From an uncultured virus (IMG/VR IMGVR_UViG_3300046386_000047) (Duplodnaviria > Heunggongvirae > Uroviricota > Caudoviricetes): a DNA stretch of 20,088 nt. Positions within the stretch are counted from its first letter, which is position 1. The number at the start of each line of letters is the position of its first letter. The notes beneath the pieces were generated by a model that saw only the letters and a program-made list of their open reading frames with translations, did not search any database and was not told the DNA's origin. This document shows positions 2,928 through 13,923 of this stretch, in pieces. Made by a program: the position numbers and the translations under genes. The DNA lies in the IMG/VR virus record IMGVR_UViG_3300046386_000047. The stretch is one strand, 5' to 3'.

Positions 2928-3091
2928 TCTATTTTGAAGCAAACCAACCCCATGTTACGGTGTGGCCGTATCTTGCTGTCGCTGTTGAGGGCGAGTTCTG
3001 GATTGGCCTTGGGTGGTTGAACTTTGAGTTTGGATGGCGCAGCGGCGATGGGGGTGACGGCGAACGTGATCCAGAAGGACAGACGTCGTGA
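2924..3091 (+). CDS. Small aromatic-rich hypothetical protein (55 aa)
   Basis: MIYFEANQPHVTVWPYLAVAVEGEFWIGLGWLNFEFGWRSGDGGDGERDPEGQTS; ATGA overlap with the upstream gene and GTGA overlap with terL. Confidence 0.75.
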   Translation: MIYFEANQPHVTVWPYLAVAVEGEFWIGLGWLNFEFGWRSGDGGDGERDPEGQTS

Positions 3092-4626
3092 ACCTTAAAA
3101 ACCTGACGTCGCTGACAAAGTTGGAGCTGCAGGCGCTTGAGCGCGCGCTGCCGACGATGTCCGTCAAGGAAAAGATGGAGCTGCTCGACGATCTGGAGAC
3201 GCGCGAGCGCCGCACGCGGCTGCTGTCGGCCCAAGACAACATGTTGGGCTTCGCCTCGTCGGTCTACCCGGGCTTCAAGATCGGGCCCCACCACCGCAAG
3301 CTGGCCAAAATCTTCACCGACGTGATTGAGGGGCGGAAAAAGCGTGTCATCATCAATATTGCGCCGCGTATGGGCAAGTCTGAGTTCAGCTCTTACCTGT
3401 TTCCGGCCTATTTCTTGGGGAAGTACCCACAGAAGAAGATCATCATGGGCACGCACACGGCGGGCCTGTCGGAAGACTTCGGACGGCGGATACGTAACTT
3501 ACTGGACGCGGAAGAGTACCGTGAGATTTTTCCCCAGACGATGGTCGCCGACGATCAAAAGGCGGCTGGCAAGTGGTCGACGAGCGCTGGCGGTCAGTAT
3601 TACGCTGCTGGTGTGGGCGGGGCGCTTGCTGGTCGTGGCGCTGATCTTTTTGTCATTGATGACCCCCATTCTGAACAGGACGTTAAGTCGAACAGCCGTC
3701 TGGCGTTCGATACGGCGTGGTCTTGGTTCCAAACGGGCCCGCTCCAGCGACTGATGCCGGGCGGCGCGATCATCATCATCATGACAAGGTGGTCGCTGCT
3801 GGACCTGACTGGGCGTTTGATGACGTACCAGATGAAGAACCCCGAGGCGCTGCCGTGGGAAATCGTCGAGCTGCCCGCCATCCTGAACCAAGACACGGAG
3901 AACGAGAAGTCGCTGTGGCCAGAACAGTGGCCGCTGGAGTCGCTCAAGGCAACGAAGGCCAGCTTGGACCCCCGGTATTGGAACGCGCAGTACATGCAGC
4001 AGCCCACGGCCGAGACCAGCGCGATCGTCAGCCGCAAACACTGGCGCATCTGGGAGAGCGAGGAGCCACCACGCTGCGATTACGTCATCCAGAGCTGGGA
4101 CACGGCCTTCGAGACCAAGAACAACTCCGACTACAGCGCCTGCACAACGTGGGGCGTCTTCTACAACGAGGAAGAGGGCGACTCGCCCCAGCTCATCTTG
4201 CTGGACGCGTTCAAGGACCGCATGGCCTTCCCGGAATTGAAGCAAGTCGCGCTGCGCCACTACAAAGAGTGGGAGCCAGACGCGTTCATCGTGGAGAAAA
4301 AGGCCGCTGGAGCACCTCTGATCCAAGAGCTGCGCAGCATGGGCATACCCGTGCAGGAATTTACACCCAGCCGGGGAAACGATAAGATGGTGCGCCTGAA
4401 CGCCGTGGCCGACTTGTTCTCTGCGGGCAAAGTCTGGGCACCGGACACGCGCTGGGCGCGTGAAGTGATTGAAGAAATAGCTGCCTTTCCTGTCGGCGAG
4501 CACGACGACTTCGTGGACACTACAACCCAAGCCCTGCTGCGGTATCGGCAAGGGGGGTTCATCCCGTTGGACTCGGACGAGAAGGACGACAGGTCGTTCA
4601 TACGCCGCCGGGCAGCGTACTACTGA
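3088..4626 (+). CDS. terL: Terminase large subunit
   Basis: Walker A IAPRMGKS, Walker B LFVIDDP, coupling motif MTRW, RNase H-like nuclease motifs SWDTA and HDDFVD. Confidence 0.97.
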   Translation: MNLKNLTSLTKLELQALERALPTMSVKEKMELLDDLETRERRTRLLSAQDNMLGFASSVYPGFKIGPHHRKLAKIFTDVIEGRKKRVIINIAPRMGKSEFSSYLFPAYFLGKYPQKKIIMGTHTAGLSEDFGRRIRNLLDAEEYREIFPQTMVADDQKAAGKWSTSAGGQYYAAGVGGALAGRGADLFVIDDPHSEQDVKSNSRLAFDTAWSWFQTGPLQRLMPGGAIIIIMTRWSLLDLTGRLMTYQMKNPEALPWEIVELPAILNQDTENEKSLWPEQWPLESLKATKASLDPRYWNAQYMQQPTAETSAIVSRKHWRIWESEEPPRCDYVIQSWDTAFETKNNSDYSACTTWGVFYNEEEGDSPQLILLDAFKDRMAFPELKQVALRHYKEWEPDAFIVEKKAAGAPLIQELRSMGIPVQEFTPSRGNDKMVRLNAVADLFSAGKVWAPDTRWAREVIEEIAAFPVGEHDDFVDTTTQALLRYRQGGFIPLDSDEKDDRSFIRRRAAYY

Positions 4627-4637
4627 AAGATTGACAC

Positions 4638-7133
4638 ATGGCCACGAACATTGACAAAGCGCTTTTCCAGCAACCCACAGGCATCGCCGCCGCAGGCGCG
4701 GCCGAGGAGCCGATCGAGATTGAGATCGTCGACCCTGAAGCGGTGCACATCGACGCGGGTGACTTGGAAATCGACATCGAGGCGGGTGAGCCCAGCATCG
4801 ACGACTTCGATGCCAACTTGGCCGAGTACCTGTCCGAGGGTGAGCTCTCCTCAATGGTCAGCGATCTGGACGGCGACATCGACAACGATCGCAACTCCCG
4901 CAAAGAGTGGGAGAAGGCATACGTCACCGGCCTGAAACTGCTGGGCCTGCAGATCGAAGAGCGCACAGAACCGTGGGACGGCGCGTCGGGCGTGTTCCAC
5001 CCGATGATTACCGAGGCGGTTGTCAGGTTCCAGTCAGAGACCATCACTGAGACATTCCCGGCCATGGGCCCGGTGCGCACGAAGATCGTGGGCAAAGAGA
5101 CCGCTGAGAAGAAAGAAGCCGCTGCCCGGGTGCAGGAAGACATGAATTTCCAGCTGACCGAGGTCATGCAGGAGTTTCGCCCAGAGCACGAGCGCATGCT
5201 GTGGAGCCTCCCAGCCACCGGCTCGGCGTTCAAAAAGGTGTACTTCGACCCCAACATTGGCCGTCAAACGTCTGTGTTTATTCCTGCCGAGGACATTTTG
5301 CTGCCGTACGGCACGTCGGACATCCAGTCTTGCTACCGCGTCACGCACGTCATGCGCAAGACCGAGAACGAGATCAAGAAGCTCCAGCAGGCGGGTTTCT
5401 ACCGCGACGTGGACATTGGCTCGCCGGACAAGCACATCGACGAGATCAACAAGGCCAAGGACAAAGAGACCGGGTTTGCTGACCTGAACGACGACCGCTA
5501 CACGCTGTACGAGTCCCATGTGGACCTGATCGTCAAGGGCGACCCCCGGGCCGAGTTGGATGACGATGGGGAGGCCACCGGCATCGCGCTGCCGTACGTG
5601 CTGACGTACATCCGTGGCAACAACACCGTGCTGGCCCTGCGCCGGAACTGGGAAGAAGACGACGACCTGCACTTGAAGCGCCAGCACTTCGTGCACTACC
5701 AGTACATCCCCGGCTTCGGTGCCTACGGCTTTGGCCTGTTCCACCTGATCGGCGGCTTTGCCAACTCGGCCACCAGCTTGATGCGTCAGCTGATCGACGC
5801 CGGTACGCTGTCGAACTTGCCCGGTGGTCTGAAGTCCCGTGGTCTGCGGATCAAAGGCGACGACACCCCGATCGCCCCGGGCGAGTGGCGCGATGTGGAC
5901 GTTGGCTCCGGCGCGATCCGCGACAACATCCTGCCCCTGCCGTACAAAGACCCGTCGGCCACCCTGTACAACCTGCTGAACACCGTGGTGGAGGAAGGCC
6001 GCCGGTTCGCCGCGACGGCCGACATGAAGGTCAGCGACATGGGTGCCAATGCGCCCGTGGGCTCGACACTGGCCTTGCTGGAGCGCCAGCTGAAGGTCAT
6101 GACGGCCGTGCAGGCCCGGGTGCACTTCACACTCAAGCAAGAGCTGCAGTTGCTGGCCGCGATCATCCGCGACTACACCGACGACGAGTACACGTACGAG
6201 CCGGACGGCGAAGAGGGCCCACGGGCCAAGAAGGGCGACTACCGTCACGTTGACATCCTGCCGGTGAGCGACCCCAATGCGGCCACACTCTCCCAGCGCG
6301 TGGTGCAGTACCAAGCGGTGATCCAGTTGGCCCAAGGCGCACCGGACATCTACGACCTGCCCAAGCTGCACCGTGGCATGCTGGAGGTGTTGGGCATCAA
6401 GAACGCCGACAAGCTCGTGCCTCTGGAAGAAGACCAGAAGCCGACCGACCCCGTGTCGGAGAACATGAGCGCCCTCAAAGGCAAGCCACTCAAGGCATTC
6501 CAGTACCAAGACCACCAAGCCCACATCCAAGTGCACACGATGGCCATGCAGGACCCGATCGTGATGCAGCTGGTTGGCCAGAACCCCCGGGCCCCGCAGA
6601 TCATGGCCGCCATGCAGGCACACATTGCCGAGCACGTTGGCTTCGCGTACCGCCAGAAGATTGAGCAGCAGTTGGGCATGCCCCTGCCGCCCGAAGGCGA
6701 GCAGCTGCCACCCGAGATCGAGATCGCCCTGTCCGGCATGATGGCCCAAGCCGCTCAGCAAGTGCTGCAGCAAAGCCAAGCCCAAGCCGCTCAGCAGCAG
6801 GCCCAGCAGCAACAGCAAGACCCTGTTGTGCAGATGCAACAGCAAGAGCTGCAGATCAAGCAAGGCGAGCTGGCCCTCAAGGAGAAGAAGCTCCAAGTCG
6901 ACGCGGCGGCCAAGGCTGACGAGCTGGAGCTCAAGAAGCAGGCGCTGGAAGGCAAGATGGAGCTGGACGGCTTCAAGGCGGGCCAGCAAGCCCAGCAGGC
7001 CGAGAAGAAGTTGCAGTCCGACCAAGAACGTGAAGGTGTCCGCATGGGCATCGACATCGCCAAGAGCAAGCAGCAAGCTGCTGCGCAAGCCCGCGCCAAG
7101 GCGCAACCACCAAAAGGACCTAGCAACCAATGA
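4638..7133 (+). CDS. Portal protein with Q-rich C-terminal coiled coil
   Basis: 831 aa directly after terL; podovirus (P22-like) portal size, GFGAYGFGL motif, long Gln/Ala helical tail. Confidence 0.9.
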   Translation: MATNIDKALFQQPTGIAAAGAAEEPIEIEIVDPEAVHIDAGDLEIDIEAGEPSIDDFDANLAEYLSEGELSSMVSDLDGDIDNDRNSRKEWEKAYVTGLKLLGLQIEERTEPWDGASGVFHPMITEAVVRFQSETITETFPAMGPVRTKIVGKETAEKKEAAARVQEDMNFQLTEVMQEFRPEHERMLWSLPATGSAFKKVYFDPNIGRQTSVFIPAEDILLPYGTSDIQSCYRVTHVMRKTENEIKKLQQAGFYRDVDIGSPDKHIDEINKAKDKETGFADLNDDRYTLYESHVDLIVKGDPRAELDDDGEATGIALPYVLTYIRGNNTVLALRRNWEEDDDLHLKRQHFVHYQYIPGFGAYGFGLFHLIGGFANSATSLMRQLIDAGTLSNLPGGLKSRGLRIKGDDTPIAPGEWRDVDVGSGAIRDNILPLPYKDPSATLYNLLNTVVEEGRRFAATADMKVSDMGANAPVGSTLALLERQLKVMTAVQARVHFTLKQELQLLAAIIRDYTDDEYTYEPDGEEGPRAKKGDYRHVDILPVSDPNAATLSQRVVQYQAVIQLAQGAPDIYDLPKLHRGMLEVLGIKNADKLVPLEEDQKPTDPVSENMSALKGKPLKAFQYQDHQAHIQVHTMAMQDPIVMQLVGQNPRAPQIMAAMQAHIAEHVGFAYRQKIEQQLGMPLPPEGEQLPPEIEIALSGMMAQAAQQVLQQSQAQAAQQQAQQQQQDPVVQMQQQELQIKQGELALKEKKLQVDAAAKADELELKKQALEGKMELDGFKAGQQAQQAEKKLQSDQEREGVRMGIDIAKSKQQAAAQARAKAQPPKGPSNQ

Positions 7134-9819: not shown

Positions 9820-10752
9820 ATGGCAATTTCACGCGCACAACTGCTCAAAGAGCTGCTCCCCGGTCTGAACGCCTTGTTCGGTTTGGAATACGCACGCTAC
9901 GGCGAGCAACACAAAGAAATCTACGAAACAGAGAAATCTGAGCGTAGCTTTGAAGAAGAGACCAAGCTGTCCGGTTTCGGCGCTGCTCCTGTCAAGAGCG
10001 AAGGTTCCGCCATCGCTTACGACAACGCGCAGGAAGCCTTCACTGCACGCTACACCCACGAAACCATCGCTTTGGGCTTCTCCATCACTGAAGAAGCTGT
10101 GGAAGACAACCTGTACGACAGTCTGTCTGCCCGCTACACCAAGGCTCTGGCTCGCGGCATGGCCTACACCAAGCAAGTCAAAGCTGCTTCCGTGCTGAAC
10201 ACTGGCTTTGCCGGTACAGCTCTCGGCGGCGACGGCGTGTCTTTGTTCGGTAACAACTCCAGCGGCACTCGCGTTGGTCATCCTTTGGTTGGCGGTGGTG
10301 TGAACTACAACAGCCCAACCACTGGCGTTGACTTGAACGAGACATCGTTGGAAAACGCTACCATCCAGATCGCTGCTTGGACTGATGAACGTGGTCTGTT
10401 GATCGCGGCCAAACCAGTCAAGTTGATTATCCCTCCATCACTGATGTTCGTTGCCAAGCGCTTGCTGGACACCGAGCTGCGTGTTGGCACTGCTGACAAC
10501 GACATCAACGCGCTGAAGCAGATGGGCACGATCTCTGGCGGCTACACCGTCAACAACTTCTTGACCGACAACAACGCGTGGTTCCTGACCACAGACGTTC
10601 CGAACGGCCTGAAGCACTTCGAGCGTACCGCTCTGTCCACTTCCATGGACGGTGATTTCGATACCGGCAACGTGCGTTACAAAGCCCGCGAGCGCTACAG
10701 CTTTGGCTGGTCGGACCCGCTGGGTATGTGGGGCTCTTCGGGTTCGTCCTGA
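9820..10752 (+). CDS. Major capsid protein
   Basis: MAISRAQLLKELLPGLNALFGLEY...YKARERYSFGWSDP, recognised as an aquatic podophage MCP; AAGGAG RBS; followed by a strong terminator. Confidence 0.92.
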   Translation: MAISRAQLLKELLPGLNALFGLEYARYGEQHKEIYETEKSERSFEEETKLSGFGAAPVKSEGSAIAYDNAQEAFTARYTHETIALGFSITEEAVEDNLYDSLSARYTKALARGMAYTKQVKAASVLNTGFAGTALGGDGVSLFGNNSSGTRVGHPLVGGGVNYNSPTTGVDLNETSLENATIQIAAWTDERGLLIAAKPVKLIIPPSLMFVAKRLLDTELRVGTADNDINALKQMGTISGGYTVNNFLTDNNAWFLTTDVPNGLKHFERTALSTSMDGDFDTGNVRYKARERYSFGWSDPLGMWGSSGSS

Positions 10753-10759
10753 TGAGAAT

Positions 10760-10790
10760 GAAAAAGGGGCCTTGTGCCCCTTTTTCTTTT
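10760..10790 (+). terminator. Intrinsic (bidirectional-looking) terminator after MCP
   Basis: GAAAAAGGGGC-CTTGT-GCCCCTTTTTC-TTTT. Confidence 0.9.
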
Positions 10791-10800
10791 GGTGTATATT
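10772..10800 (+). promoter_or_regulatory. Putative promoter overlapping the terminator
   Basis: TTGTGC-17bp-TATATT. Confidence 0.55.
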
Positions 10801-10809
10801 GCCCCAACT

Positions 10810-10881
10810 CCCGGACTTTTCCGGTGTATCTGACGGCTCCGGGCCGACGACATGCAGACAGATACGCCTCAACTCGCATGT
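10810..10881 (+). ncRNA. Candidate pseudoknotted structured RNA (possibly Polynucleobacter-1-like motif)
   Basis: Three crossing helices: 10810-15/10838-43, 10823-32/10859-68 and 10850-55/10876-81; the family assignment is unverified recall. Confidence 0.65.
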
Positions 10882-10892
10882 GAGGAATCATC

Positions 10893-11126
10893 ATGGCAAA
10901 TACCACCTTCAACGGCCCAGTTCGTTCCGAAAACGGCTTTCAATCCGTCACCAAGAACGCCACTACCGGTGCTGTCACTGTGACCGCCACATTCGGCGCA
11001 GCCACTTCTGTGACCACCATCTCTGCCACTGGCACAGCCAACGTGATCGTCATCCCTACGGTTGACCCAGCTGTTGCTGGCGCGATCTGGAACAACGCTG
11101 GCACTTTGGCCATCTCCGCCGGTTAA
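10893..11126 (+). CDS. Small virion-type protein (77 aa)
   Basis: GAGG RBS; MANTTFNGPVRSENGF N-terminus, Thr/Ala-rich, ends GAIWNNAGTLAISAG. Confidence 0.85.
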   Translation: MANTTFNGPVRSENGFQSVTKNATTGAVTVTATFGAATSVTTISATGTANVIVIPTVDPAVAGAIWNNAGTLAISAG

Positions 11127-11133
11127 TTGATCT

Positions 11134-11151
11134 CAGGGGCTCCGGCCCCTG
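11134..11151 (+). other. Intergenic UNCG-tetraloop hairpin
   Basis: CAGGGGC-TCCG-GCCCCTG followed by only a short T run. Confidence 0.65.
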
Positions 11152-11169
11152 CTTTACAGGAGATTGATT

Positions 11170-11457
11170 ATGACGATGCAAACCGATGTCAGATCGCAGC
11201 ACCTGACAGCAAGCGGCGCTATTGCCAGCTCTGCCCGAAACCGCCTCAAGTCCATTTCGTATCGGGGCGATGGCACTGACGGGTACGTGAAATTGCGTGA
11301 TGGCAGCGCTGGCGGCACGGTTCTGTGCGAGCTTGATGTGGGCACGAGCGACACGTTCACCATCTACGTTCTGCTTCCGGGACAAGGAATTTTGTTTCCA
11401 AACGGAATCTACGTAGACATTTCGCACGTAAGTGCGACGACGGTGTTTTATGGCTAA
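11170..11457 (+). CDS. Hypothetical virion-type protein (95 aa)
   Basis: AGGAG at 11158-62, ATG at 11170; beta-rich, ends PGQGILFPNGIYVD...TVFYG. Confidence 0.85.
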   Translation: MTMQTDVRSQHLTASGAIASSARNRLKSISYRGDGTDGYVKLRDGSAGGTVLCELDVGTSDTFTIYVLLPGQGILFPNGIYVDISHVSATTVFYG

Positions 11458-12428: not shown

Positions 12429-12662
12429 GTGAAAGCCCCGCAGAAGTCGCTCAAAGATTGGGGGGATGCTAAGTGGCGCACCAAGAGCGGCAAGCCGTCT
12501 TCAAAAACTGGCGAGCGCTACCTGCCGGAGAAGGCGATAAAATCGCTCAGCCCCGCAGAGTATGCGGCCACCACCAAAGCCAAGCGTGCTGGTAAGGCGG
12601 CGGGCAAACAGTTTGTGGCCCAGCCCAAGACCATCGCCAAAAAGACAGCGAGCTTCAGATGA
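12429..12662 (+). CDS. Basic protein resembling the C-terminal half of DUF5872-like proteins
   Basis: GTG start, AAGGA upstream; QKSLKDW...WRTKSGKPS..GERYLP...GKQFVAQP. Confidence 0.75.
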   Translation: MKAPQKSLKDWGDAKWRTKSGKPSSKTGERYLPEKAIKSLSPAEYAATTKAKRAGKAAGKQFVAQPKTIAKKTASFR

Positions 12663-13357
12663 CAACTTCCGGCACCTCTGCATTCAACCTCGACCTGACG
12701 GAAATCGTTGAGGAAGCGTTCGAGCGCAACGGTTCGGAGTTGCGCACGGGCTACGACCTGAAGACCGCACGCCGGTCTTTGAACTTGCTGTTTGCTGACT
12801 GGGCCAACCGGGGCATCAATATGTGGACGTTTGAGCAGGGCTCCCAAGTCCTGACCCCGGGCGTGGCCACGTACGAGCTTCCGGCCGACACGGTGGATTT
12901 GCTTGAGCACGTCATCCGCACGGGCGCGGGCAGCGCTTCGACGCAGGCAGACCTGACCATCACGCGTATCAGTGTTTCCACGTACGCCACGATCCCCAAC
13001 AAACTGCAGCAAGCCCGCCCCATCCAGATTTGGATTGAGCGCTTGAACACACCGCGCTACACCGTGTGGCCTGTGCCAGATGACAGCCAGACCTACACGC
13101 TCGTGTACTGGCGACTGCGCCGCATCCAAGACGCTGGCAACGGCGTCAACACGATGGACATGCCGTTCCGTTTCATCCCCGCGATGATTGCGGGCCTGTC
13201 GTACTACTTGGCCATGAAACTGCCCGGGGGCATGGAGCGTCTGGGTGTTTTGAAGGCTCAGTACGACGAGGCTTGGGACCTTGCCTCTTCCGAAGACCGC
13301 GAGAAGGCCGCTGTGCGCTTTGTGCCACGCCGCCAGTACATTGGAAGCGGGACCTAA
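12659..13357 (+). CDS. Probable head-tail connector/adaptor protein
   Basis: 232 aa; helical N- and C-termini (ARRSLNLLFADW, GLSYYLA) around a beta core with VWPVPD; ATGA overlap. Confidence 0.65.
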   Translation: MTTSGTSAFNLDLTEIVEEAFERNGSELRTGYDLKTARRSLNLLFADWANRGINMWTFEQGSQVLTPGVATYELPADTVDLLEHVIRTGAGSASTQADLTITRISVSTYATIPNKLQQARPIQIWIERLNTPRYTVWPVPDDSQTYTLVYWRLRRIQDAGNGVNTMDMPFRFIPAMIAGLSYYLAMKLPGGMERLGVLKAQYDEAWDLASSEDREKAAVRFVPRRQYIGSGT

Positions 13358-13747
13358 ATGGGCAATCGGTTTGCCAGTGCCAAGAACTCGATCGCCCAGT
13401 GCGATCGTTGTGGTTTCCGCTTTAAGCTCACAGAGCTGCGCAAGGAAATCATCAAGACCAAGACCTACAATCTCTTGGTTTGCGATTCTTGCTGGGACCC
13501 CGATCAGCCGCAGCTCCAGCTGGGCATGTACCCTGTGGACGACCCGCAAGCGGTGCGCAACCCGCGCCGGGACACCACATACGTCACAGCCGGGCCCAAC
13601 GTGGCAGGCTTCCCGACAGGCGGTAGCCGAGACATCCAGTGGGGTTGGAACCCTGTTGGCGGAGCCCGGTTCTTTGAAGACGAGCTAACCCCGAACTACT
13701 TGGTGTTGACTACGGCAGTCGGCCAAGTGACAATCTCAACATCCTAA
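13358..13747 (+). CDS. Hypothetical protein with CxxC...CxxC motif (129 aa)
   Basis: CDRCGF...LLVCDSCWDPDQPQL. Confidence 0.8.
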   Translation: MGNRFASAKNSIAQCDRCGFRFKLTELRKEIIKTKTYNLLVCDSCWDPDQPQLQLGMYPVDDPQAVRNPRRDTTYVTAGPNVAGFPTGGSRDIQWGWNPVGGARFFEDELTPNYLVLTTAVGQVTISTS

Positions 13748-13758
13748 AGGAGTTCATC

Positions 13759-13923
13759 ATGGACGCAAAGAAAGCAGTGCGCAAGCACGAAGCAAATATG
13801 CACCCCGGCCAAAAGCCCACCAAGCTGCGTGCTGGTGGCAAGACCAACAGCGACATGCTGAAAATGGGTCGTGGCTTGGCCAAAGTCGCCAACCAAAAAT
13901 CCCCCGGCCGCAAAGGAGCCTAA
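13759..13923 (+). CDS. Small basic protein (54 aa)
   Basis: Below the ORF-track cut-off; AAGGAG RBS; MDAKKAVRKHEANMHPGQKPTKLRAGGKTNSDMLKMGRGLAKVANQKSPGRKGA. Confidence 0.8.
   Translation: MDAKKAVRKHEANMHPGQKPTKLRAGGKTNSDMLKMGRGLAKVANQKSPGRKGA

Follow-up and report, generated by a model that had tools for sequence, protein, structure and literature searches.

Between the major capsid protein gene and a 77-residue gene of an uncultured virus (IMG/VR IMGVR_UViG_3300046386_000047) lies a predicted four-helix knotted RNA which, judged by comparison of related sequences, is conserved in many aquatic phages. Its fold, its conservation and its fixed place before one gene family agree with the general idea of a cis-acting element, as proposed in an earlier sequence-only reading of this DNA. 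We suggest, with a probability of roughly 0.55, that the knot controls in cis the translation of a capsid-accessory protein, and possibly also the stability of its mRNA.

The knotted leader and its surroundings

The stretch of DNA analysed, 20,088 nucleotides in full and called the window throughout, contains the following features around the RNA:

9820..10752, + strand: major capsid protein gene, the upstream neighbour (PF25209 Phage_capsid_4 at 2.6e-13, with a weaker Mu-like_gpT match; phrog_371 major head protein)
10760..10790, + strand: intrinsic-terminator-like hairpin with 11 pairs in its stem (10760-10786) and a T run behind it, ending the capsid message, from a terminator scan
10772..10800, + strand: promoter-like site read from the sequence, TTGTGC (10772-77), a 17-base spacer and TATATT (10795-10800)
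10808..10895, + strand: whole leader RNA, the extent of the covariance-model match
10810..10815, + strand: helix h1, 5' strand (CCCGGA), pairing with 10838-43
10811..10824, + strand: competing local hairpin CCGGA-CUUU-UCCGG, used by the nested minimum-energy fold
10823..10832, + strand: helix b, 5' strand (GGTGTATCTG)
10832..10834, + strand: first GAC, whose G closes b, whose A is unpaired and whose C opens d
10834..10836, + strand: helix d, 5' strand (CGG), its first C being part of the first GAC
10838..10843, + strand: helix h1, 3' strand (TCCGGG), inside the loop of helix d
10844..10846, + strand: helix d, 3' strand (CCG), its last G being part of the second GAC
10846..10848, + strand: second GAC, whose G closes d
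10850..10855, + strand: helix c, 5' strand (ACATGC)
10856..10859, + strand: AGAC, with AGA unpaired between c and b and C opening the 3' strand of b
10859..10868, + strand: helix b, 3' strand (CAGATACGCC), with a single U-G pair
10876..10881, + strand: helix c, 3' strand (GCATGT), adjoining the ribosome-binding site
10882..10886, + strand: ribosome-binding site GAGGA, with the ATG at 10893
10893..11126, + strand: 77-residue gene served by the leader, an open reading frame with a product starting MANTTFNGPVRS (phrog_36974, unknown function)

The sequence-only reading had placed three helices here in the strand order a-b-a'-c-b'-c', and a read of the sequence confirms both the pairings and the order by coordinates, with helices h1 (its a), b and c mutually crossing. 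It was equally right that GAC recurs at the junctions and that strand c' stands next to the ribosome-binding site, GAGGA following directly after c'. Its wording "triple-helix" is wrong, as the elements are three, and with the additional 3-bp helix d (closing a loop that holds strand a') really four, ordinary crossing helices with no base-triple helix. The knotted RNA comprises about 75 bases (about 10808-10881), with the ribosome-binding site adjoining its 3' end, and the full leader to the ATG is 88 bases long. Covariance model R1 scored 73.9 bits on the leader, its sole strong match in the window with filters off, and model R2 scored 76.3 bits on the same 88 bases. The window alone is suggestive only, in that the helix statistics are modestly unusual: shuffling matched the length of the anchored helix in 192/5000 cases for a, 48/5000 for c and 20/5000 for b (0.4-3.8%), and the nested-fold z-score of -1.0 is uninformative because the fold is knotted.

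A promoter nested in the capsid terminator had also been proposed. Both boxes are present, and TTGTGC does lie inside the terminator hairpin, but a consensus scan made no call and the -35 box matches at only 3/6 positions. Among relatives, a hexamer with at least 5/6 matches to TATAAT was found in 56/105 upstream stretches, against a mean of 23.3 and a maximum of 34 in 200 shuffles, and the end of this -10-like box falls mostly 6-10 bases before h1 (mode 9). Transcription is thus predicted to start just before h1. In the window no terminator was found between the RNA and the start codon; another hairpin is present at 11134-11152, after the 77-residue gene. The sequencing runs in which the stretch occurs carry the label freshwater metagenome. 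Four runs filed as RNA-Seq (X15 being RNA only by guess) yield contigs that are 85-99% alike and cover about 10759-10975; these contigs display neither starts nor ends, may be DNA and have no bearing on transcription or on the 5' end.

In relatives, the distance from the 3' end of c to the ATG is 7-19 bases, mostly 11-15. For the window's type and type C, 0-3 bases separate the 3' strand of c from the ribosome-binding site, whereas this strand contains the site in the L054 group, with UGAGG, and in type D, with CUAGGAGG. Since the ribosome-binding site lies outside the helices in the window and in type C, simple sequestration fails as an explanation for these two types. Between the end of the outer helix b and the site, the window has 13 bases.

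Conservation and covariation among relatives

Compensatory changes among homologues are present and strong in the three helices of the sequence-only reading, which had named their absence as one outcome that would speak against it. In 96 diverse homologues, 90.0% of the pairing cells hold a pair as opposed to 62.0% in shuffles, and the covariation score of 0.678 (0.207 in shuffles) was reached by 0/500 shuffles, where many of the aligned sequences are close kin and the cell counts accordingly overstate the number of independent changes. Across alignments of 96 to 124 homologues, the observed pairing or covariation was matched by 0/500 shuffles, and registers slid along the alignment score at most 0.18 against 0.57-0.68 in the true register. 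The covariation supports all four helices.

Helix h1 occurs in relatives as CCGGG/CCCGG, CUAGG/CCUAG, CCUAG/CUAGG, CUGGG/CCCAG, CCAAG/CUUGG, CCCCG/CGGGG, CUCGG/CCGAG and ACUAUAC/GUAUAGU, and is paired at 91.9% and 86.0% in an alignment whose model left h1 out. Both-sided changes are seen at all 10/10 pairs of helix b, with 77 distinct strand pairs among relatives and 92.5% pairing in an alignment whose model left b out. The short helix d is 96.2% paired in the 96 homologues, its middle pair being AU in 34/96, UA in 27/96, GC in 23/96 and CG in 11/96. For helix c, 26 distinct strand pairs were counted, among them ACAUGC/GCAUGU, ACAUAC/GUAUGU, UCAUGC/GCAUGA, GUAGCAG/CUGCUAC and CCUAG/CUAGG, and with the position of the partner left free, own partners form 5.20 bp on average as opposed to 2.67 for swapped partners. 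The support for c comes from these anchored script counts and not from alignment columns: the MAFFT alignments A2 and A3 do not place the h1 5' strand and the c 3' strand of different types in one register, and a second covariance model that includes h1 and c as pairs fixed the register for h1 and not for c. The 67.5% obtained for c in a shifted register is a mixed count.

In the 146 parsed relatives the first GAC reads GAC in 129 and AAC in 14, while AGAC is kept in 114 and reads AGAU in 14. The AC and GAC columns are invariant in alignment A2, the invariance being partly by construction, as the parser that chose the A2 sequences requires the second GAC. G-U pairs occur only on the gene's strand (for example, U-G 18 times at one pair of b), which points to RNA rather than DNA as the conserved molecule. 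The same strand order is retained in types C and D despite unrelated helix sequences.

The alternative hairpin at 10811-24, described by the sequence-only reading as a competitor of a and b, does exist, but a general two-state switch does not follow, the hairpin being kept in some lineages only. It reaches at least 5 bp only where the h1 strand in the d loop is CCCGG, CCGGG, CCCAG, CGGGG, CCGAG or GCCCU, and is mostly limited to 4 bp or fewer in the CCUAG, CUAGG, CUUGG and GUAUAGU classes.

The downstream gene family and its two leader forms

Protein-led searches yielded 183 distinct upstream regions. The regular expression for Mu-gpT-DE (RF03012), an RNA family discussed below, fits 26 of these (Rfam run on five of the 26 gave 48.7 to 73.6 bits), and in the 157 regions failing it the GAC core of the knot was parsed in 146, where 28 parses are weak and two of them (L234, L239) are Mu-gpT-DE-like by eye. 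Covariance-model matches were found in 8/11 of the unparsed regions; L099, L105 and L292 hold reduced or divergent forms only. A scan with the RNA core only returned 108 usable distinct loci, and in 103 a start of the form MA.TTF.GP follows 24-40 bases downstream, with one further locus showing this start with one residue changed. The remaining 4/108 (L374, L388, L397, L399) precede genes without the conserved N-terminal arm (MA.TTF.GPV in the family), which weakens the idea that the arm itself is the ligand. At loci such as L052, L074, L077 and L080 the upstream gene is not the capsid gene, and box, RNA and gene are still found together; in Pelagibacter phage HTVC027P, the RNA immediately precedes gp62 and is two genes downstream of the capsid gene. 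The RNA travels with the downstream gene. HTVC027P is an isolated phage and a relative of the abundant HTVC023P-type pelagiphages.

The product of this gene is a putative capsid-accessory protein, going by the names "cement protein" or "minor capsid protein" that GenBank depositors gave to relatives sharing the N-terminal arm; no functional name occurs among 2073 relatives of the 77-residue protein itself. The GenBank phage relatives were reached via the capsid gene, tblastn of the 77-residue protein against GenBank phages having given no match, possibly through low-complexity filtering. Sequence searches of the PDB with the 77-, 151- and 172-residue proteins returned nothing at or below 0.001, with two chance-level matches for the 151-residue protein (E 0.13 and 0.24) and none for the other two, and no Pfam family was found for the 77-residue protein or for five longer relatives. 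The nearest named cluster in the ESM Atlas, a "phage tail-like trimerisation region" at 0.87, should be taken as a lead only, and the AlphaFold monomer of the 77-residue protein is a poor model (pLDDT 74.7, pTM 0.34). Matches in the genome collection comprise only three metagenome-assembled contigs labelled Sphingobacteriales, Armatimonadetes and Bacteroidota, too few to indicate a host.

The Rfam model scan proposed by the sequence-only reading matched the RNA to no Rfam 15 family: none reached its gathering score in the whole window, none matched over 10800-10895 at E<=10, and the sole weak matches of the region fall on the terminator hairpin at 10760-10786. Mu-gpT-DE, with a gathering score of 49 bits, had no match at E<=10 in 10600-11250, while its model gave positive controls 48.7 to 73.6 bits. 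In the reverse direction, run with default filters at E<=10, the knot's covariance model picked up 0 of 25 leaders of the Mu-gpT-DE type. As neither model finds the other form, we rejected the window RNA as a detectable member of Mu-gpT-DE.

Both RNAs nevertheless sit behind a Mu gpT-like capsid gene and immediately ahead of the start codon that comes next, and both precede the same gene family, down to orthologues that are 71-74% identical. The L001-L007 products share 65-74% identity with the protein encoded in the window. Rfam assigned the leaders of L001 and L004 to Mu-gpT-DE, the others fitting by regular expression only; the L001 product is 74% identical and its leader is Mu-gpT-DE at 73.6 bits. 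Likewise, DSL-LC04 and CRP-902 encode 151-residue proteins with 71% identity to each other, the former being preceded by the knot (54.7 bits) and the latter by Mu-gpT-DE (72.3 bits). The two forms share a junction consisting of outer helix, G-AC, hairpin, GAC, about 9 bases, GAC and outer helix again, as seen from the Rfam consensus of Mu-gpT-DE (CCCUGACAG...CUGACAcUAGCCAcGACAGG) and the window (...CUGACGG...CCGACGACAUGCAGACAG...). They differ in that Mu-gpT-DE has a 4-bp outer helix CCUG/CAGG and a long inner hairpin, with no h1 or c in the Rfam structure, whereas b in the window RNA is 10 bp and d 3 bp long, with two additional helices that cross. The outer strand CAGG of Mu-gpT-DE lies inside CAGGAG, which places the ribosome-binding site within the helix. 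Place, junction and gene family are thus shared, while the model score and the short outer helix are not, and by position, gene and junction the window RNA is, in our reading, a knotted relative of Mu-gpT-DE that has gone unrecognised, a common descent of the two resting on context and about ten junction bases.

Knot and Mu-gpT-DE appear to be interchangeable between close orthologues. Since both lead one gene family and replace each other there, Mu-gpT-DE itself would be a cis-acting leader and not a free sRNA, although Rfam types it as "Gene; sRNA" in a row without function. By-eye comparison gave no convincing covariation for a GCCA/UGGC pairing of the start region in Mu-gpT-DE. The family reportedly stems from the 2017 survey by Weinberg. 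Its name is absent from the main text of PMC5737381, and among papers naming Mu-gpT-DE none on its function was found.

Proposed role and comparison with known systems

From these observations we infer an action on translation, a protein partner and a direction of effect. The stretch would represent the complete 5' leader of the capsid-accessory mRNA, folded into a compact four-helix knot in which helix b (10 bp) stacks on the short hairpin d. In this knot the extreme 5' end of the RNA pairs with the loop of d (h1), and the 3' tail pairs with the single strand that links d to b (c). The three central strands carry the only invariant unpaired bases, G-A-C, G-A-C and A-G-A-C, and the 3' strand of c ends directly at the ribosome-binding site. 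The folded knot could limit or tune access of the small ribosomal subunit in cis. The folded form is probably stabilised by a protein at the GAC core, the most economical partner being the unassembled accessory protein itself in an assembly-coupled self-regulation, and pairing of the very 5' end may in addition protect the message. A bolder and tentative extension is that the GAC-junction strands form the pocket of a knotted RNA sensor, new and very widespread, which reads the unassembled accessory protein or a small molecule and couples synthesis to head assembly, with Mu-gpT-DE as a stripped-down version.

Alternatively, the knot could be constitutive and without regulatory input, burying the transcript start and shielding an abundant late message from 5'-end-dependent decay, much as 5' stem-loops do in stable bacterial mRNAs or, on a bolder comparison, as nuclease-resistant viral RNA knots do. 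The -10-like box at a fixed short distance would put h1 within a few bases of the transcript 5' end, and the ribosome-binding site is left free in the window's type. However, a plain hairpin would suffice for protection, the invariant unpaired junction and four covarying helices suggest specific recognition, and the ribosome-binding site is found inside a helix in three lineages, which makes pure protection possible but doubtful. Protection and translation control are compatible and not exclusive.

None of the ribozyme, ligand-sensing and virion-assembly roles offered by the sequence-only reading gains support from the analysis. That the RNA acts beyond its own gene is unlikely. The put RNA of phage HK022 modifies the transcribing polymerase to read through terminators, and phi29 pRNA serves in the virion; a role of either type, or as a small RNA in trans, would suit the position right behind a promoter-like site and a terminator, the hairpin that follows the 77-residue gene and the Rfam label of Mu-gpT-DE, but none of these roles requires the fixed short spacing to, or overlap with, the ribosome-binding site, and the RNA lacks a terminator of its own ahead of the start codon. 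Quite unlikely is a riboswitch, in which a small molecule or ion bound at the GAC junction would tip the equilibrium between knot and local 5' hairpin. The conserved unpaired core amid covarying helices would fit, as would the covariation of the competing hairpin with h1 in six classes of h1 sequence, yet this alternative pairing is absent from four others and so not general to the members, a capsid-accessory gene offers no obvious metabolite logic, and no Rfam 15 riboswitch family matched. For a self-cleaving ribozyme, the compact pseudoknotted fold with few invariant bases would fit, but no match to an Rfam 15 ribozyme family was found and the 5' strand finds its partner within the d loop, not after it as in the nested double pseudoknot of HDV-like ribozymes, leaving this very unlikely. 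Chance complementarity without function, to which the z-score and the single-helix frequencies of the window alone would lend themselves, is refuted by the shuffle and register comparisons on homologues.

The significance of the knot lies in a compact four-helix fold with only about ten invariant bases that Rfam 15 lacks, although hundreds of contigs from uncultured aquatic phages carry it, as does the isolated HTVC027P. The orphan Mu-gpT-DE gains a context as leader of a capsid-accessory gene family. Should the core bind a protein or ligand, the RNA would represent a recognition fold of a new kind and provide a rare example of phage head formation under assembly-coupled control. The system is testable, offering an RNA of 88 bases, natural variants that serve as compensatory mutants and isolated phages with each form; RNA-seq of HTVC027P infection has also been published (PMC12753301).

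No paper on the knot RNA was found by title, and a prior bulk listing may exist in supplementary data. According to PMC10690425, 8,495 candidate structured RNAs from IMG/VR, the same source collection, form a bulk catalogue, and the knot may be among its unnamed "DNAVirus_n" candidates; four short core strings are absent from six of its supplementary files. The sequence-only reading had suggested the Polynucleobacter-1 motif (RF01718), which PMC2864571 describes as likely cis-regulatory and found in Burkholderiales and in fresh water and estuary. The likeness extends to the freshwater setting and the presumed 5' leader role, and the identity was rejected, with no match to the model in the window at gathering score, over 10800-10895 at E<=10 or in 15 related loci at E<=1.

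In topology, the exact strand order of h1, b and c is A-B-A'-C-B'-C', which we take to be that of kissing-hairpin pseudoknots. The difference is that here the "kiss" b is the longest helix and that h1 itself forms a pseudoknot with the d loop; the class denotes topology only and carries no function. A possible likeness in function is to autogenous operators, in that a 5' leader pseudoknot touches the ribosome-binding site of a protein presumably consumed in assembly, no similarity of sequence or fold being claimed. As in such operators, the leader structure touches or covers this site, with c' abutting GAGGA in the window and the site inside a helix in the L054 group, type D and Mu-gpT-DE.

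The knotted RNA in the gap behind the capsid gene

The window is a tailed-phage head module with terminase, portal, capsid and adaptor genes, and the locus of our finding is the 140-base gap between the capsid gene and a gene for a 77-residue protein.

3088-4626, large terminase
4638-7133, portal
9820-10752, major capsid protein (PF25209 and a weaker Mu gpT match)
10760-10790, strong hairpin resembling a terminator, with T run, at the end of the capsid gene
10893-11126, 77-residue gene, next after the capsid gene; product starts MANTTFNGPVRS
12659-13357, SU10-type adaptor

The 77-residue product belongs to a large family, with 2073 related proteins (E<=0.001), and no source gives a functional name for any of them; the protein falls in a PHROG of unknown function and has neither a Pfam family nor a relative by sequence in the PDB. 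Between its stop codon (11124-26) and the following gene, which has the ribosome-binding site ACAGGAGA (11156-63) and an ATG at 11170, lies a GC-rich hairpin, CAGGGGC-UCCG-GCCCCUG (11134-11152), with no T run on its 3' side, a candidate attenuator, processing site or stabiliser.

The sequence-only reading had described three crossing helices in the gap, and all are present where it placed them: a (here h1) pairs 10810-15 with 10838-43, b pairs 10823-32 with 10859-68 and includes one U-G pair, and c pairs 10850-55 with 10876-81, in the strand order a-b-a'-c-b'-c'. Its finer details were likewise borne out, with GAC recurring at 10832-34 and 10846-48 and AGAC at 10856-59, the ribosome-binding site GAGGA (10882-86) directly adjoining c', and the hexamers TTGTGC and TATATT separated by 17 bases (10772-10800), the first of them within the terminator hairpin. 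An additional 3-bp helix, d (10834-36/10844-46), closes the loop carrying a'. The single window sequence makes a weak case for these helices; its nested fold has z = -1.0, and among 5000 shuffles, anchored helices equally long arose 192 times for a, 48 times for c and 20 times for b.

Leader types and covariation among relatives

An IMG/VR search with the 77-residue protein as query yielded 579 confirmed relatives, 80 of which were kept, and three more protein queries (the whole L079 and L041 products, and that of L054 as far as its contig holds) added 240 rows, with a few loci repeated. The 310 upstream regions extracted, 183 of them distinct, were sorted by eye and regular expression into four types: A, the window's form; B, which is simpler than the others; C, where the window's strand order is built from unrelated helices (e.g., CUAGG/CCUAG, CCCGCACC/GGUGUGGG, GUAGCAG/CUGCUAC); and D (ACUAUAC/GUAUAGU, GAACAUAG/CUAUGUUC, CCUAG/CUAGG). 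One plan is common to all non-B types. Its 5' half runs from the h1 5' strand through a variable linker, the b 5' strand, G|A|C, d and a loop with the h1 3' strand back to d, and its 3' half comprises G|AC, the c 5' strand, AGA|C, the b 3' strand, a variable linker, the c 3' strand and the ribosome-binding site.

A core-anchored script parsed 146 of the 157 distinct regions failing the type-B regular expression (two of the 146, L234 and L239, are type-B-like by eye). Helix b has at least 7 bp in 135 of these, h1 at least 5 bp in 130 and c at least 5 bp in 133, and the distinct strand pairs number 77 for b, 15 for d, 30 for h1 and 26 for c. Eleven of the 16 shorter h1 helices pair only CU/AG at the anchor; three short cases read directly (L038, L049, L066) have CU(A)GGG/CCCAG with a single bulged A. 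Eight of the 11 unparsed regions are strong covariance-model matches.

Some loci depart from the common pattern. L105 (333-403) has a reduced form that keeps b (AACACAG/CUGUGUU), three GACs and a CCUC/GAGG pairing over the ribosome-binding site, without h1 or d, and L099 has just a small hairpin with flanking GAC. In Planktothrix phage Pag-Yong1 a 104-base GC-rich gap (1807-1910) precedes a 'minor capsid protein' gene starting MSTTLFPAPV; it matches neither the knot model nor Mu-gpT-DE, looks strongly self-complementary and may be a further leader form. The gene also occurs on three contigs (L081, L082, L083) binned as Sphingobacteriales, Armatimonadetes and Bacteroidota genomes, probably binned phage contigs or else prophages; the second has the knot as its leader (68 bits) and the first has Mu-gpT-DE (64.1 bits).

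The knotted leader RNA is real, and the compensatory changes among homologues by which the sequence-only reading had proposed to judge it are found in the relatives, in pair counts as well as in an anchored strand comparison. The paired fraction with a sequence's own partners, as against those of other sequences, is 0.973 vs 0.510 for b, 0.988 vs 0.537 for h1, 0.986 vs 0.549 for c and 0.958 vs 0.647 for d. With partner position left free (70 representatives), own partners give 8.69 bp for b, 5.41 for h1 and 5.20 for c, and swapped partners 3.59, 3.42 and 2.67. In a MAFFT alignment of the 124 sequences that passed the first parser (b at least 7, c at least 5, h1 at least 3; others dropped), 85.5% of cells, which are not independent events since many sequences are kin, are paired against 59.8% when shuffled, and the covariation score is 0.566 against 0.186 (0 of 500 shuffles as high; slid registers at most 0.165).

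Because MAFFT does not align the outer h1 and c strands correctly across types, two covariance models were built, R1 from b and d only and R2 from h1 and c only. R1 matched 96 of 100 diverse sources (L099, L105, L239 and L292 were unmatched), and on its alignment h1, which lies outside the model, is 91.9% and 86.0% paired, with pairs CG 50 / UA 35, GC 42 / AU 32 and GC 58 / AU 16. On the R2 alignment b, outside that model, is 92.5% paired with both sides changing at 10 of 10 pairs, and d is 96.2% paired, its middle pair being AU in 34, UA in 27, GC in 23 and CG in 11. Overall, this alignment, which like the other favours the helices included in its own model, has 90.0% of cells paired vs 62.0% shuffled and a covariation score of 0.678 vs 0.207 (0 of 500 shuffles as high; slid registers at most 0.176). 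Column counts are lower for c (68.7-86.1% paired) because its 3' strand occupies two registers in different types, and support for this helix is taken from the anchored strand analysis. G-U pairs are frequent on the gene's strand, where the opposite strand would read A-C mismatches, so the folded molecule is an RNA in the gene sense. R1 has a weak second match in the window (13687-13761; 15.8 bits, E 0.035, six non-standard pairs), which ends at the ATG at 13759 and is probably driven by the model's AGGA...AUCAUG tail.

The proposed competing hairpin (10811-24) is also present; six of the h1 sequence classes keep it in covariation with h1 and four others lack it, so that a switch operating through it is not universal.

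Genes served and a possible role in translation

Helix c has its 3' end 11-15 bases upstream of the start codon in most cases. The ribosome-binding site is 0-3 bases 3' of c in types A and C, within c in the L054 group and type D, and within the outer helix in Mu-gpT-DE. A -10-like hexamer matching at least 5/6 occurs in 56 of 105 upstream stretches (shuffled mean 23.3, maximum 34), its end mostly 6-10 bases before h1 (mode 9), and given this short distance transcripts are predicted to start within a few bases of h1. Box, RNA and gene remain together where the upstream neighbour is not a capsid gene, and in Pelagibacter phage HTVC027P gp62 (start MANTTFSGPV) is immediately preceded by the knot (52.8 bits), two genes downstream of the capsid gene.

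A scan of IMG/VR with just the type C RNA core returned 120 loci, leaving 108 usable after removal of 7 duplicates and 5 truncated ones. A conserved N-terminal arm, MA.TTF.GP, starts 24-40 bases downstream of the core in 103 of the 108, and in a further locus with a single residue changed. The first codons of the arm vary at synonymous positions (GCA/GCU/GCC/GCG, AAU/AAC), which argues that it is conserved as protein and not as RNA. The remainder of the protein varies in sequence and length (69, 77, 134, 151 and 172 residues; the L054 product breaks off at residue 126, where its contig ends). Two longer arm-bearing proteins were named by their GenBank depositors 'cement protein' (phage DSL-LC04) and 'minor capsid protein' (Pag-Yong1); the DSL-LC04 ORFs were annotated via database and HHpred comparison, and 'cement' is absent from the main text (PMC10611076). 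The downstream product is likely to be a capsid-accessory protein. The other four cores (L374, L399, L388, L397) precede genes without the arm, and the first two of these have products with a different common start, M..A[ST]HLG, suggesting that the same RNA may serve a second gene family.

Since the knot is conserved, takes up the entire leader and contacts the ribosome-binding site of a single gene family, we infer that it acts in cis on translation initiation. The junction, with its conserved unpaired bases, would be a likely recognition site for a factor, with stability through the buried 5' end as a likely second benefit, and self-regulation by unassembled protein would be the most economical version. 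Precedents for self-regulation include S4, S15 and P22 scaffolding. T4 gene 32 is another (PMC10690425). Simple models have against them that the ribosome-binding site lies outside the helices in the window's type, and that 4 of 108 cores serve genes lacking the arm.

Relation to Mu-gpT-DE and other known RNAs

The suggested identity with Polynucleobacter-1 (RF01718) has to be abandoned, as the RNA matches no Rfam 15 family: the window has no match at gathering scores, only the terminator hairpin is matched at E<=10 over 10600-11250, and ten non-B loci gave no match at E<=1. Type B is assigned by Rfam to the orphan motif Mu-gpT-DE (RF03012, gathering score 49), with 73.6 bits for L001, 70.4 for L004, 59.3 for L029, 58.6 for L069 and 48.7 for L019.

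The knot and Mu-gpT-DE substitute for each other before orthologous genes. L001, whose leader is Mu-gpT-DE, encodes a product 74% identical to the window's protein, and the 151-residue proteins encoded by DSL-LC04 and by Roseobacter phage CRP-902 share 71% identity, the former preceded by the knot (54.7 bits) and the latter by Mu-gpT-DE (72.3 bits). Different leader forms before orthologues of 71-74% identity argue that the leader was exchanged or remodelled repeatedly. The two RNAs also read alike at the junction (outer helix-G, AC, hairpin, GAC, about nine bases, GAC-outer helix). R1 matched 0 of 25 Mu-gpT-DE-type leaders (E<=10, default filters) and the RF03012 model did not match the window, so the window's RNA is not filed as a member; it occupies the same place as Mu-gpT-DE, and the two probably have a common origin.

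Mu-gpT-DE loci (L001, L004, L039, L325 and others) carry an invariant single-stranded GCCA complementary to UGGC in the start region (AUG GCN). This putative pairing would cross the outer helix in the manner of the knot's helix c; at its flanking positions a single case compensates (L039) and mismatches are many.

The knot has the strand order of kissing-hairpin pseudoknots, unlike the nested double pseudoknot of HDV type. Literature searches turned up no paper describing it, though PMC10690425 may list it among its bulk candidates, which are unnamed, or the supplement of PMC5737381 may contain it. The knot is a new structural form among orphan phage leader RNAs of a known kind, with a putative role in translation.
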